Shown here: in pieces, positions 21,001-27,000 of the stretch | Layout: each line of letters opens with the position of its first letter | How positions within the stretch are numbered: position 1 is the stretch's first letter | Assembly: GCF_030013595.1 (NCBI RefSeq) | Contig: NZ_CP122769.1 | Strand: one strand, 5' to 3' | Length of the DNA stretch: 64,000 nucleotides | From: Escherichia coli | Lineage (GTDB): Bacteria; Pseudomonadota; Gammaproteobacteria; Enterobacterales; Enterobacteriaceae | Made by a program: the position numbers

Positions 21001-24000
21001 CAAGGTAATGGAGTCATGTTACGCGAGATATTATGGTTACGATGTCTGGACCGAAAAAGTTAAGTACGTCGCTAACGAAACCTTGCCGGTACGTTTCAAG
21101 CGTCTCGCTGAATGGTTTACGGCTCATTTCATGAATTACGAGGGGTCCGAACAAATAGACTGGTTAGATACTGTTTCCCAGCTTATTGATTACTCAATGT
21201 CCGACCCAGAGCATATGGCTAAAATGACCGCAGGTATTATGCCTGTTTTCGATATGCTCATTGAAAAACCTTTAAATGAGCTTTTATCTCCTAACCCGAA
21301 CTCAGTATCATCAAGAGAAATTGTAACAAGCGAAGGGATGTTCAGCACTGGCGGGGTGCTATACATTTCGCTTGATGGCCTTTCAAACCCCGATACAGCA
21401 GCTGCTATTTCTCAATTAATAATGTCAGATCTGACCTCCTGTGCCGGTAGTCGCTACAACGCTCAGGATGGTGATATGTCAGCTAATTCCAGGATAAGTA
21501 TTTTTGTTGATGAGGCACACTCAGCCATTAACAACCCTATGATTAACCTTCTGGCGCAGGGTCGTGCAGCGAAAATTGCACTGTTTATTTGCACCCAAAC
21601 CATCTCCGACTTTATTGCTGCGGCAAGTGTTGAAACTGCCAATCGAATTACGGGGCTCTGCAACAATTATATAAGCTTGCGAGTCAACGATACTCCTACT
21701 CAGACGCTTGTTGTAGAGAACTTTGGTAAGAGTGCGATAAGCACAAATATGGTCACTTATACGACCGGTTCAGAAACATCTTTGCCGCATAATAACTTCT
21801 CAGGTTCAATCTCAGAAAGAAAGCAGACAACTTTAGAAGAGAGTATTCCAAAGGATCTCTTGGGTCAGGTCCCTATGTTTCACATAGTTGCCAGGCTTCA
21901 AGATGGCAGGAAGGTTGTAGGCCAAATCCCTATTGCTGTTGCTGAGAAACAAATGAAGCCAAACACAACTCTGTCGGAAATGCTTTTCAAGAAGGCCGGA
22001 AAAGTTACTTTGCGTCAAAATCTCGATATCAAAAATCTTAATAAATTTCTAAGGAAGTTGCATTGATGGATGAAAAAATTGTCCTGACGCGCCAGCAAAT
22101 TTTAAGCTCTGCACTAAAAGTCAGCAAATGTCGCTCGCTCGTAAAAAGGCGCTTTCAGTCTTTGGGTTTAAAGTACGCAGATTCTCAGGAAGTTCGAGAT
22201 CGGCTAACTAAGATAGAAAAAAACGCGTTTCATCATTTGGGAAAATTTTGTCAGAGCAACGATATCGATTCCCTATTCTCCATGGCAAATACCCTGTCTG
22301 AGCTTTTCCTTTTAAAGGGAGAGTTGATCACGACTGATCCCTTTGGGGACCGTGAAACCAGCTACTGGTCGGTACCACAAGGTTCATGCCATGAATGGAT
22401 TCAATCGCTGACCACCAGCGAAGGTCCTGAACGTAAATTCGTTAGTTTCCGTATTTCTTTCGATAACAATGACGAACGGTGTGATCTTGTAAAGAAGAAT
22501 GCCCGTATGCTTGGTTGTTATCTTTTGCCTTATTTCGTCGATTTGACACGCACGGTGGGCGCATTCATTAATTTGCCAGGTAGTGTCTCTTTTAAACAAG
22601 TACAGCGCATCAAACCCCAGATTCATCCAGAAACAACACATAGTCATATAGTTACTATTGAGGACTCTCCCTTTCTTTCTCGGTTAAAATTTAAAATCAT
22701 TACTGCCATAGATCGGCTTCCTGACCCTAATGGCCTTTATACAAACACCTTTAACAGCATTATTGACCGTGCACTGCTGACTCATCTCAAAACCGAACAG
22801 GAAAAAATAGATAGTCCAAGAGTCTGCAAAAATGTGATTTCGGCTTTTGCCGACTCAACTCTTTCTCTGCCGGTGTTTAACATCGGCCTAAACGAGCAGT
22901 ACAGATACTGGACGCCGTGGGGCATCAACTTTATAGAATTTTCCCGCCAGGCCGCAAAAGCAAGGACCGCTGTATTTGTTCCTGATGTGGGACAGATCGA
23001 GTGGAAAAGCGCAGAGCATAAAGAACTGGCGGAGTTAAGCCTCATCGACCAAATCATACCTAAACAGTACCACTGGCTCCTGGGTATCCCGACGATGTGG
23101 CGTAACAACTATTGCAATCACGATCAGAGGCTAGCTCTTTTTCGTGAATGGAGGGAAAGCAATGGCTGCGGATAATACAAGCAGAGCAGCAGTGCTCAGA
23201 ACAATGCTTTTTTTTGGCATGGTCATTTATTTTGGTTACAGCCTGGCTTTCCAGAATACTGAGGAGCTCAAATATCAGATTACTCAGGAGGTTAATGCAA
23301 GCCGGTCCATCATATCAAATGACCGTTGGAAGTCTGTTATTGCAAATAGTGAAGCGACTTTAAATTGGTTGGTACATGACTATAAGTTAATTGACTATCT
23401 GAATACTATTCTGATCCCTGACACCAAAAAACCAGCCAGAGGTATTAACATTGTTGCTGAAAAATTTACCTCTATTAATTACACTATGGCCAAAAACATA
23501 CCCCTCTTACTTTATCAGTCCATTTTCCGGTGGAACTTAATCCTGGGGTGGCTAATCGTTTTTCTGCCCTATCTATTTGCCATGCTAGCAGATGGAATGT
23601 ACCAGTGGAAATTGAAGAGGTACGTATTTGGTAAGGTTACAGTTCAGTTTTATCGTATTTGGTTTCGAGCATTTTGGGTGATCAGTGCTTTAACGATGGT
23701 CTACCTGGTCATGCCGAATATGTCACTATTTAACAATATCGCTCAACTTTTCCCACCAGTCGCTTTATTGATACTGGGAATTGCATTGAATCGCTTGTGG
23801 TCTAACTTTCAAAAACTCATGTAAAGGTGGTCAGATGTTAAGCAGTAAAAAAAGGAAGTCCCCTACAAATATCAAAGAATCGCTCAATGATAACGCTGAC
23901 CGTTTTTATAAGATGTTTCGCATTCATACCACGGCAAAAGTTGCTATGTCGCTAATTGCCATGACCGCTGTAGGGTTTTCTTTCTACAATCTTTACGAAC

Positions 24001-27000
24001 AATGGCAGGACGCTGAAGGGAAGAAAGACCATATAGCTGTAATACGGATTTCTGGCGAGATGGGTACCGGCTCGGAAACGGGCGATGGAACAGTGATCGC
24101 AACAGCTCTTGCCAAAGCTTACAATAATCCCCATGCCAAAGCAGTTATTATCGAGGCAGAGTCAGGTGGTGGTGGTCCCTCTGACGCCATCATTATTTAC
24201 CGCCAGATAAACGCGCTTAAAAACCACCAGCCACAGATTGAACGCGTATCAGATGCCGGTTGCTCTCTTTCATCTGTAGCCGCTGACAAGAGTAACAAAA
24301 CCGGGAGCACAGAACGTGGCGATGAAGCACGGTCGAAGCAAAACTCCCTCGAAGTACTCTCCAGCGGTACCGGTCGTTTTTTCTCTGATATCGCAGACTC
24401 ATATAAACCAATCATCGTTAGTGTGAAAGGCATATGCGCATCCGCATGCTATTACGCGGTATCGCCCGCTGATGCAATTTATGCCGACAGTAATGCCCTG
24501 ATCGGTTCTATCGGTGTGCGTATGGACCACTGGAATCTGTCAGAGATCATGAGCACAGTAGGCGTCAAGAATGAGCCCCTTACGGCCGGTGAGTTCAAAG
24601 ATGCTCTTGACCCCTTCCACCCATTGTCCGATTCAACGAGGGAGTTCATGCAGAAGGAGATCCTGAACACGATGCATGAAAAATTTATAACTGATGTTGA
24701 ACTTGGACGGGGTAAAAAGCTTCTCTCGCGTCATGATGCCGATGCTGTTTCTCTCTATTCAGGCCGTGTATGGCCAACACCTCAGGCAGTTAAGTACGGC
24801 CTGGTGGATGGAGATCTTACGTCAGTAGAGATCCGTACACGTCTTTCAAAAATGTACTCCACTGACACGTTCAAAAACTACAATGAGCCTCATCGTAATC
24901 TCCGTTCTGCACTCGGCATGCTGATGAGCCTGTCTTCAAATATTGAGAGCCTTACCGGTACCACTACCCGCTTGGTAGAATCTGTTAATGCCACCAGCTA
25001 CCCCTCTGTGAGGTAACATGGATGCTTTCAATCTGCTGTGGAGCATTACGGGGGTAGCTTTCATTATCCTTATTTTCGTCGTGTTGCTGTGTCTGTTGGG
25101 TTTTATGACCTCTGCCATAGCGGAACGGCGGACTGCAAAGGCAATTGAATCTGGGCTTCCTGAAGAAGCTCAGGGGCTACTTAGTGATCTCACCTTTCAG
25201 TTGTCGGCTCATAGCACTACTCAGGTTGATCACATTCTCGTAGCCCCACATGGTATATACGTCATAGAGCAGAAAAACTACGTAGGCAAGCTCTACGGTA
25301 CTCTGGAGGAAAGCCACTGGCGGAAATGGACTCAGTCCCGAACCCTCAAGTTGCAGAACCCGTTTAAGCAAAACCAGGGGCACATCAGGGCTATTCAGTC
25401 TGCTCTTAAGGCTAGAGAACTGGAATGTATCAATGTCGTCATCATAAACGGACGTTGTAAGTTTGATGGCATCAAGCCGGAATGGTTATGTATGGGGATG
25501 GACGATTTTATCCATAAAGTCAAACAACGACGAGGGCTACGGTTGTTCACACCGGAGTCTGTTCAGCACATCTGTTCGGTGTTGAAGTCAACAAGGAAGT
25601 CGCCAGGGCTCTATACGGACCTTACTCATATTCACAACATAACGACAAAGTACAAAGCCCCGATGAAATTCGAGCAACGAGTAACATACATTCTGCTCAA
25701 CTTTATCCATTATCTGTGGGCAAGTCTGTTCACTAAGCAGAAGCCTTAGCGCTCTATCATTGGTAAGGCTGTAAAATGTCTGCAAAAGGCCCCATCGGTA
25801 AATTGTTGGGGCTTTTTCTTTGCGTAGTTCTGATACGGTTTATCCTGTGGAGCATTATGGCCACCAGCCAGCTGGTGACTGGCCAACGCTTTGTATGACG
25901 TAGCCTACTCAGGGCAGGCTATTTTAGAGGGACCGATTTTTATCCGGGCTAATTTAGAAAGAGATAATTTGAACTTAGGCGGGCTGACCACCAGCAGAGA
26001 GGTAAATCACTAGCCGGTGATATTGACAGAAGTCGTCAGGGGTTTAACGCCGGAATATTTTGCCAGGCCTCCTGCAAGGTCTGCAAGACTTCTACAAGTG
26101 ATAGTGACGGCCACAGGACTGTTTCCGTCATTATCACTCCAGGTGGCTCGCACTCTACTGGTACCAGAATTAAAACAACACGAGTTCCTTTTACCTGGTA
26201 GGCAAGGTTTACTGCCGGTTGGCGGTAGGAGGCCAGTACACCCTCACCATATTGAGCAGGGTTACTTGCCCAGTTCCGCACCATTGCATACACCTGAGGC
26301 ATATACCGACTATCCAGATCCCCTTTGGGCCGTCTGAACGGCACGATTTCTTCTGAGCGGTAGGTGGTCGTTGTTGTATTGGTTGTCATCTTTGTCACCT
26401 CCCCTGTTCGTCCATTTAGAGTTTTAAGCTGCTTTACACATCACACTCAACTGATTATTTAAGCTGGTCATCGTCTCTGGCCAGCATAGCCCAACCATTC
26501 GACTGGTTTTCGCGGGAGTAAGGATTCATTTCAAAATAACTATCTACCGCGTCGCTGTCCGCAACAGAACTGTTGTTAGCTCTCTTTGAACCCTGAACCA
26601 CTACAGCATCAACCTCTGCGGCTTTCCCGTTGCGCTGTACCAGGATTTTAACCGTCTTGGGCTTACGTCTTGCGAGCAGTTTGTTGGCGATAAAAAGCAC
26701 AACAATCCAGGCCAAAAGCACGTATAAAAATTTATTCATAATGCCCTCCTTTGTATGTGATTATTATACCTGCTTCCATTGCAGGCCAAACAGGTTCGGT
26801 GTATGAAAAATAGACTTCTCTCCGGCGTATAGCAATCTACTTACTGATCTGTTTTCGTATCAAACTGTATGGCATAACCGAGGGGCGTACGTGGTGAGTC
26901 AGAAAGTTACTTTTCCGTAATAGTTAATTTCAGATCCTTCTTCCAGTTACGCTTCAGTATAAAACCGATACCCTCTAATTCAGCATCCTTCACGTTTAAT

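Follow-up and report, generated by a model that had tools for sequence, protein, structure and literature searches.

Why does the operon that carries the relaxase and coupling-protein genes of an IncH-type conjugative plasmid end in genes for an SppA-like S49 peptidase and a NERD-domain protein? We address this question for a 64,000-nucleotide stretch of Escherichia coli DNA (RefSeq assembly GCF_030013595.1, contig NZ_CP122769.1; hereafter the window), in which the two genes lie side by side at the 3′ end of an eight-gene operon. On balance, we lean towards the answer that they encode two separate accessory enzymes, a periplasmic S49 peptidase that would support transfer and a membrane-tethered NERD nuclease, and not one system.

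A transfer operon and its last two genes

All eight open reading frames (ORFs) of the operon, which spans 15607–25749 of the window, are intact, and the same gene calls are found in the RefSeq annotation of identical plasmids. The operon and its end consist of the following features, with protein lengths in amino acids (aa):

15607–16092, plus strand: mobI (traH, or R0122, of plasmid R27), first gene of the operon; intact ORF, named MobI(A/C) in RefSeq
16089–16826, plus strand: 245-aa ORF, homologue of R0121; ATGA overlap with mobI
16836–19982, plus strand: MobH-family relaxase gene (traI), from RefSeq; homologues in related loci carry TraI_2
19982–22066, plus strand: type IV coupling protein gene (traD; traG in R27), from RefSeq; TAATG overlap with the relaxase gene
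22066–23175, plus strand: 369-aa ORF, homologue of R0118, which is listed in the R27 H operon; TGATG overlap
23162–23824, plus strand: gene for TraJ (DUF4400/DtrJ-like, PF14348), a multi-pass membrane protein, from RefSeq and its transmembrane-like segments
23835–25016, plus strand: gene for the S49 (SppA-type) serine peptidase, 393 aa, homologue of R0116; PF01343, alignment to Bacillus subtilis SppA (3RST)
25018–25749, plus strand: gene for the NERD-domain protein, 243 aa, homologue of R0115; PF08378, AlphaFold2 (AF2) model and fold neighbours
25782–25821, plus strand: terminator-like hairpin with a T-run at the end of the operon; −18 kcal/mol, z = −3.17

The initial annotation described these genes as abutting or overlapping, and this is borne out by the junctions, which in order are −4 (ATGA), +9, −1 (TAATG), −1 (TGATG), −14, +10 and +1 nt; four of the seven are overlaps, and the other three are gaps of 1–10 nt. 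The S49 start is served by an AAGGTGG Shine-Dalgarno sequence within the 10-nt gap after traJ, while the NERD start has GAGG upstream, within the final S49 codons, and the S49 stop codon lies 1 nt ahead of the NERD ATG. This spacing is compatible with translational coupling, and no internal terminator with a strong stem was listed for the operon.

This part of the IncH backbone is known as the Tra1 transfer region. Over positions 15000–27000 the window shows 100% identity with many IncHI2 plasmids, from E. coli, Salmonella and Enterobacter; 989 plasmids, typed with a MOBH relaxase and MPF_F, match this segment at an identity of at least 99%, and about 970 plasmids carry the S49–NERD pair at the same threshold. 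A DNA search retrieved the pair in 1,828 plasmids and TraJ in 1,857, which indicates that, within this plasmid group, the pair and the DNA transfer and replication (Dtr) genes occur together in nearly a one-to-one ratio. Annotations of IncHI1 pHCM1, IncHI3-type Klebsiella plasmids, a K. oxytoca MOBH plasmid and a Buttiauxella-type contig show the eight genes in the same operon.

In R27, the H operon is given as traH(R0122)-R0121-traI-traG-R0118-traJ-R0116-R0115, with R0116 labelled '(H), peptidase' and R0115 '(H)' (PMC7366339). The window pair agrees with R0116 and R0115 in its position after traJ and in protein length (393 vs 393 and 243 vs 242 aa); with no difference of substance between them, the window genes are the IncHI2 orthologues of R0116 and R0115. 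The orthologues of IncHI1 pHCM1 share 73% (S49) and 63% (NERD) identity with the window proteins. In an htdA mutant of R27 at 25 °C, R0116 and R0115 are up 4.71-fold and 5.57-fold, along with traJ (7.29-fold), traG (9.21-fold) and traI (10.98-fold; PMC7366339), so that the assignment of the pair to the relaxase/coupling-protein operon is upheld. S49 and NERD are ordinary backbone content of a well-sequenced plasmid family and are already listed in the R27 literature, and the notion that this gene content is novel does not survive, since the pair is standard in every IncH-type plasmid examined, though unnamed: R0115 and R0116 carry no tra or trh names. A comparative IncH preprint gives R0115, R0116 and R0118 as conserved Tra1 loci. 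Our literature searches found no published function for R0116 or R0115 and nothing relevant on S49 together with IncH, IncC or AcaCD, while the search on S49 with a relaxase returned an unrelated Vibrio plasmid note as its sole match.

Active sites and predicted topology

In Pfam, the S49 protein matches Peptidase_S49 (PF01343, E = 5.8e-28, residues 188–338) and the NERD protein matches NERD (PF08378, E = 1.9e-21, residues 33–142); the former also aligns with B. subtilis SppA 3RST (phmmer, E = 6e-15). The parts of the two genes that bear on activity and topology are:

23937–23999, plus strand: predicted signal-anchor helix, S49 residues 35–55, between a K/R-rich tail and an acidic C-terminal flank
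24222–24404, plus strand: variable, partly disordered insertion in the S49 fold, residues 130–190; predicted local distance difference test (pLDDT) score below 50 for residues 133–157
24441–24443, plus strand: codon of S49 Ser203, the predicted nucleophile, aligned with the Ser of 'AASGGYY' in 3RST and invariant in 28 homologues
24597–24599, plus strand: codon of S49 Lys255, the predicted general base, aligned with the K199 position of SppA, which is Ala in 3RST
25030–25116, plus strand: N-terminal transmembrane helix, NERD residues 5–33, from Kyte-Doolittle hydropathy and charge bias
25123–25275, plus strand: NERD active-site residues E36, D71 (with H72), E84 and K86, invariant in 38 homologues

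In SppA numbering the nucleophile is S147, and 3RST is a K199A mutant. Both Ser203 and Lys255 are invariant in the four IncH lineages, and Lys255 is kept in at least 90% of the 28 homologues, so the Ser/Lys dyad is intact in the alignments. The same holds for the E36/D71/E84/K86 pocket of the NERD protein, whose AF2 model (pLDDT 93.6) has fold neighbours that are all PD-(D/E)xK nucleases, with the restriction-endonuclease-like fold.

The S49 protein shares with SppA (B. subtilis 3RST/4KWB; E. coli 3BEZ) and SohB the S49 fold and the aligned dyad, and it may likewise have a single N-terminal anchor with the protease domain outside the cytoplasm. It differs from them in being plasmid-borne and fixed after traJ, in an insertion of 50–60 residues that is predicted to be partly disordered, and in scores below all NCBIfam equivalog cut-offs (SppA_dom 121.2 vs 155.45, SppA_67K 96.1 vs 311.45, SohB 54.9 vs 259); another NCBIfam model gave 59.1 against a cut-off of 746. 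We therefore rejected an SppA or SohB equivalog identity and regard the protein as a member of the S49 family only. The earlier remark that it is not the usual leader peptidase of pilin maturation proved correct, since its sole significant Pfam match is S49 and not S26; an S26-type pilin leader peptidase was rejected as an identity, and related systems encode their S26 enzymes in genes of their own.

The anchors of the two proteins are not equally clear. For NERD, the Kyte-Doolittle mean of residues 12–30 is 3.1; three K/R follow this segment and none precedes it, and the proposal of membrane anchoring is well supported; the charge bias predicts an N-out orientation with the nuclease domain in the cytoplasm. 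For S49 the same proposal is likely to hold, although residues 36–54 are moderately hydrophobic, at about 1.4 by a hand estimate against the Kyte-Doolittle threshold of 1.6. The hydrophobic stretch is kept in all 28 homologues and lies within a long helix of the AF2 model (residues 13–61) that follows a K/R-rich N-terminal tail, and the charge bias predicts here an N-in orientation with the protease domain in the periplasm. The insertion in the S49 fold differs in sequence between IncH lineages; among the 28 homologues compared, it is present in the IncH clade, in Motilimonas and in a few others, and absent from the rest.

Two further observations concern the S49 gene. At the C-terminus of the protein (…TSYPSVR, window 24993–25013), T387, S388, V392 and R393 are invariant across the IncH lineages, and a hydrophobic residue with Arg after it also forms the end of many distant S49 homologues. 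The C-terminus of B. subtilis SppA undergoes self-processing, and the enzyme binds the resulting peptide in its active site; by analogy, the S49 tail might be auto-inhibitory. In addition, one 1.9-kb Logan contig encodes a 509-aa protein (P0001) in which a DtrJ-like (PF14348) part is fused to S49 with 100% identity. A frameshift in sequencing is a more probable cause than a natural fusion, because traJ and the S49 gene are in different frames in the window.

Linkage to traJ, separability and constraint

Relatives of the S49 protein were followed down to about 30% identity by a profile protein search, and eight distinct distant contexts were inspected; a scan of genome contigs with very specific S49 peptide patterns returned near-identical IncHI2 loci and one IncHI3-like locus only. 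Six of the eight contexts (S49 identity about 28–33%) have the order MobI, unknown, TraI_2 relaxase, TraD, a small ORF in some, DtrJ-like and S49: Motilimonas eburnea, Ferrimonas kyonanensis, a chromosomal element of a Vibrio sp. and three metagenomic contigs. The other two contexts are mobile elements too, and MPF_F genes lie in the vicinity of one of them. In all syntenic operons traJ lies immediately 5′ of the S49 gene, and in the Ferrimonas element and one metagenomic element the next gene after S49 is small and encodes a putative pilin (in Ferrimonas with a weak match to TrbC, in the metagenomic element unannotated), with traL-E-K-B behind it.

The NERD gene does not share this reach. A hidden Markov model scan of the loci found no NERD in four complete operons with S49, and a fifth contig ends at S49; the Vibrio element holds both genes, with one extra gene between them. 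NERD orthologues are restricted to IncH-type plasmids and this Vibrio element. From these comparisons, the S49 gene appears to be an old accessory of the MOBH transfer module and the NERD gene a later addition at the 3′ end.

The distribution bears directly on the suggestion, made when the locus was first described, of a defence cassette riding on the transfer operon. A two-gene cassette for defence or exclusion would explain why the genes are adjacent with a 1-nt spacer and why each IncH-type lineage examined, as well as one Vibrio element, has both of them. However, the presence of S49 right after traJ without NERD in four distant, complete operons indicates separable accessories, as does the gene inserted between the two in Vibrio, and the catalytic domains, predicted on opposite faces of the inner membrane, also argue against a two-gene unit. 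Matches to defence families give no support: S49 has no PADLOC hit, and NERD matches at the domain level only, both in NCBIfam (MAD6, 41 bits vs 460; PglW, 20 vs 990) and in PADLOC v2 (PglW, 24 bits; MkoA, 21 bits). No defence-partner genes lie beside the pair, whose neighbours are transfer genes. As regards exclusion, the known entry exclusion of IncHI1 plasmids maps to eexA/eexB, in the other transfer region. In the comparative IncH preprint, eexB is listed among the Tra2 genes. We consider a joint cassette very unlikely, and this part of the initial annotation is not sustained.

Both genes are maintained by selection. Synonymous sites between IncHI2 and IncHI1 are saturated for most genes, and the ratio of nonsynonymous to synonymous substitution rates (dN/dS) was obtained from the IncHI3/K. 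oxytoca pair: 0.065 for S49 and 0.096 for NERD, compared with 0.058 for TraD, 0.086 for TraJ and 0.168 for TraI. Amino acid identities of IncHI2 with IncHI1 and IncHI3, respectively, are 73/49% for S49, 63/33% for NERD, 83/47% for TraD, 82/49% for TraJ and 68/35% for TraI. By these measures, S49 appears as conserved between IncH lineages as TraD and TraJ, and NERD about as conserved as the relaxase; the ratios point to strong purifying selection on both genes, with neither decaying, and no more than two disrupted copies of S49 were noticed. Dispensable passengers without current function would fit the fact that the genes were never named tra or trh and that S49 is disrupted in two natural plasmids, but such an explanation is hardly credible given dN/dS values below 0.1 for both genes, invariant catalytic residues and synteny that is kept down to about 30% identity. 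We also rejected decaying passenger genes.

Possible roles and the surroundings of the operon

For the S49 protein, a role in transfer, as periplasmic support of the transfer apparatus, is the most likely. As an inner-membrane-anchored Ser/Lys protease it would work on the periplasmic side, in proteolytic housekeeping or maturation, for instance by removing the leader or propeptide fragments that come from pilin and from other transfer proteins that are secreted; alternatively, it might trim a periplasm-exposed component of the transfer apparatus. It would then parallel the plasmid copies of host envelope functions, such as DsbC-like and LepB-like proteins, which count for little in laboratory hosts. 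By analogy with these, S49 is probably redundant with host SppA/SohB in laboratory matings.

Related plasmids provide the comparison. According to the Rts1 paper, R27 DsbC matters only in dsbC-null hosts, being redundant with the host enzyme, whereas Rts1 needs a LepB-like peptidase (Orf185, S26). Rts1 Orf185, TrhF/TrhP (TraF-like, S26) and R27 DsbC resemble the window S49 protein as plasmid copies of host periplasmic maturation functions, which in their case serve the transfer apparatus; Orf185 and TrhF/TrhP differ from it in belonging to clan S26 instead of S49 and in having measured transfer phenotypes. A distant S49 homologue (26% identity, E = 1e-27) is present in IncC/IncA plasmids, another MOBH/MPF_F family, beside a periplasmic folding factor. 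In IncC p11935-Ct1/2 (L005:6935-8770), the S49 gene (319 aa) and, directly after it, a DsbA-family gene belong to a long operon on the plus strand, close to repA. Unlike the window gene, the IncC/IncA gene lies in another operon near the replication gene, far from traI/traD, and has no insertion and no NERD neighbour. Our literature search found no paper on the IncC S49 gene.

A more specific function for S49 would be that of a dedicated maturation protease of the H-type pilus, for example in trimming the prepilin C-terminus before cyclisation by a TraF-like peptidase, with importance under natural conditions. We regard this as unlikely. The gene does directly precede a putative pilin gene, and then traL, in two distant elements, its constraint equals that of TraD and TraJ, and the Rts1 paper notes that, in addition to LepB and TraF, a host peptidase that has yet to be identified is required for RP4 pilin to mature. 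However, S49 is absent from MOBH/MPF_F elements that keep pilin genes and from the table of required genes for Rts1, the IncH pilin operon lies in the other transfer region, outside the H operon, and the gene was apparently not scored as essential in R27.

For the NERD protein, the candidate roles are DNA handling at the channel and a guard function. In the reading that we prefer, it would be a PD-(D/E)xK nuclease that a membrane tether holds on the cytoplasmic side of the inner membrane, and its gene would have joined the 3′ end of the operon in the IncH lineage as well as in at least one Vibrio element; since the relaxase and coupling protein are produced along with it, its probable activity is the cleavage of nucleic acid at the membrane, close to the transfer channel. 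NERD might instead act alone, as a guard nuclease against foreign nucleic acid at the envelope, such as genomes of pilus-dependent phages or competing plasmids, with S49 serving unrelated transfer housekeeping. We see this as a possibility, albeit a doubtful one. It draws on the occurrence of NERD domains in defence proteins, as in the weak MAD6, PglW and MkoA hits above, on the position of the gene as a lineage-restricted add-on at the operon end, and on small NERD homologues in island-like settings. These more distant proteins are found in chromosomal islands with toxin-antitoxin and integrase genes, or on Bacillus plasmids; the NERD domain was first described on the anthrax plasmid pXO1. 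The small stand-alone NERD proteins resemble the window protein in size (about 210–270 aa) and conserved motifs, but differ in location (chromosomes, genomic islands or Bacillus plasmids), and many of them have a C-terminal zinc ribbon of the topoisomerase type (PF01396), which is absent from the window protein.

Some weight for a guard function also comes from ZwsA (Zowangsin), a NERD-domain RNA endonuclease against single-stranded RNA phages, whose genomes are cleaved, likely via NERD; substitution of E535, D567, E580 and K582, which map to the catalytic pocket, leads to loss of defence (bioRxiv 10.64898/2026.04.06.716636). These residues are spaced nearly as E36/D71/E84/K86 in the window protein. 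ZwsA, which we compared from its published description, is a large multidomain cytoplasmic protein (VHS, DUF647, S4), whereas the window NERD protein has 243 aa, is membrane-tethered and has a helical C-terminal region. Against a guard function stands the lack of any full-length PADLOC or NCBIfam defence match. Defence genes usually turn over, whereas this gene has kept its position and has been under strong purifying selection throughout the IncH radiation. Moreover, R27-carrying cells support the growth of the H-pilus-specific phage that served in the R27 pilus assays, so that any protection against that phage would be incomplete.

Several observations weigh against our preferred reading of two accessory enzymes with transfer-linked roles. 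The S49 anchor is moderately hydrophobic only, and its topology rests on charge bias. MOBH operons without S49 exist in Pseudoalteromonas spongiae and Vibrio coralliilyticus p380, and the required-gene table of the Rts1 paper, which includes SXT and R27 homologues, lists S26-type peptidases only; the machinery thus does not include S49 in every case. A broken S49 gene occurs in two natural IncHI2 plasmids, through an IS5 insertion in one and a frameshift in the other. The Tra1 region has 14 ORFs, which fits R0115–R0128, and nine of them are named (traH, traI, traG, traJ, trhR, trhY, trhF, trhH and trhG). Mutation of nine of the 14 reportedly made R27 transfer-deficient in the work of Lawley et al. 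from 2002; by counting, R0115 and R0116 would be among the other five and hence dispensable for R27 transfer. Finally, in wild-type R27 the expression of R0115–R0118 is equal at 25 and 37 °C, with signals of 700–1500 (PMC7366339), and is therefore not strictly tied to transfer conditions; the signals of traI/traG are 220–460, and traH and R0121 are induced 8–12-fold at 25 °C (PMC7366339). The R27 pattern hints at an internal temperature-independent promoter ahead of R0118, for which a consensus promoter scan of the window gave no clear candidate ahead of the R0118 homologue.

A bolder combination of these roles can also be drawn, and we think it improbable. S49 would be a dedicated but overlooked component of H-type (MOBH/MPF_F) systems that processes a periplasm-exposed transfer protein, for example by the kind of prepilin trimming for which RP4 still lacks a known enzyme, with its apparent dispensability reflecting host redundancy alone, while NERD, located at the coupling-protein/TraJ complex, would cut nucleic acid entering through the plasmid's own pilus or channel, such as genomes of pilus-specific phages or rival plasmids. 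If true, a self-protection function would be built into the relaxase operon.

The remaining ORFs and the surroundings of the operon show several further features. The 245-aa and 369-aa ORFs (homologues of R0121 and R0118) have no significant Pfam, NCBIfam or PADLOC match, and faint matches alone were seen (JetA, 21 bits; FlhB-like, 15–18 bits). A gene of the size and position of R0121 follows mobI in all MOBH operons seen, while the ORF between traD and traJ ranges from 176 to 369 aa across MOBH operons and is absent from some. Upstream, the intergenic region 14939–15606, between the divergent trhR-side genes and mobI, is the one that holds the origin of transfer (oriT) in R27. At 15281/15282 it lacks 90 bp that are present in most IncHI2 relatives; by pairwise alignment, the missing part consists of two units of about 45 bp, each an inverted repeat AAAAGTGACCCTATG...CATAGGGTCAC. 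Two imperfect units related to these remain in the window, at 15265–15280 (left arm missing) and 15282–15315; Tandem Repeats Finder did not detect repeat units at this indel.

Downstream, an IS66-family element at 27205–29734 (tnpA-like, 141 aa; TnpB, 116 aa; transposase, 537 aa) begins about 1.45 kb after the NERD gene, and an IS21-family element lies at 38248–40373 (IstA-like, 389 aa; IstB, 265 aa). Both are absent from the reference IncHI2 plasmid pSE08-00436-1, whose two ISApl1 copies are in turn absent from the window. From about 26000 to 64000, many genes in succession, most of them small, share the minus strand and are read in the direction of the operon and oriT. According to the annotation of the identical reference, they include genes for a Hok toxin, a DNA methyltransferase, a large PAPS-reductase-family protein, an HNH endonuclease, DUF3085/DUF957 proteins and an Ig-like-domain protein. 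Similar gene content is seen in the leading-region or anti-defence islands that other conjugative plasmids carry.

What the present analysis adds to the R27 gene list is the separation of the two genes, the deep traJ–S49 linkage, the intact active sites and a constraint equal to that of essential transfer genes. The pair is as constrained as the coupling protein and has been without a name or role for more than 20 years, and the tie of S49 to traJ across very distant MOBH elements argues for a real role in transfer. Since IncHI plasmids are vehicles for mcr, tet(X4), carbapenemase genes and the multidrug-resistance genes of typhoid, conserved backbone genes such as these are possible handles on their spread.

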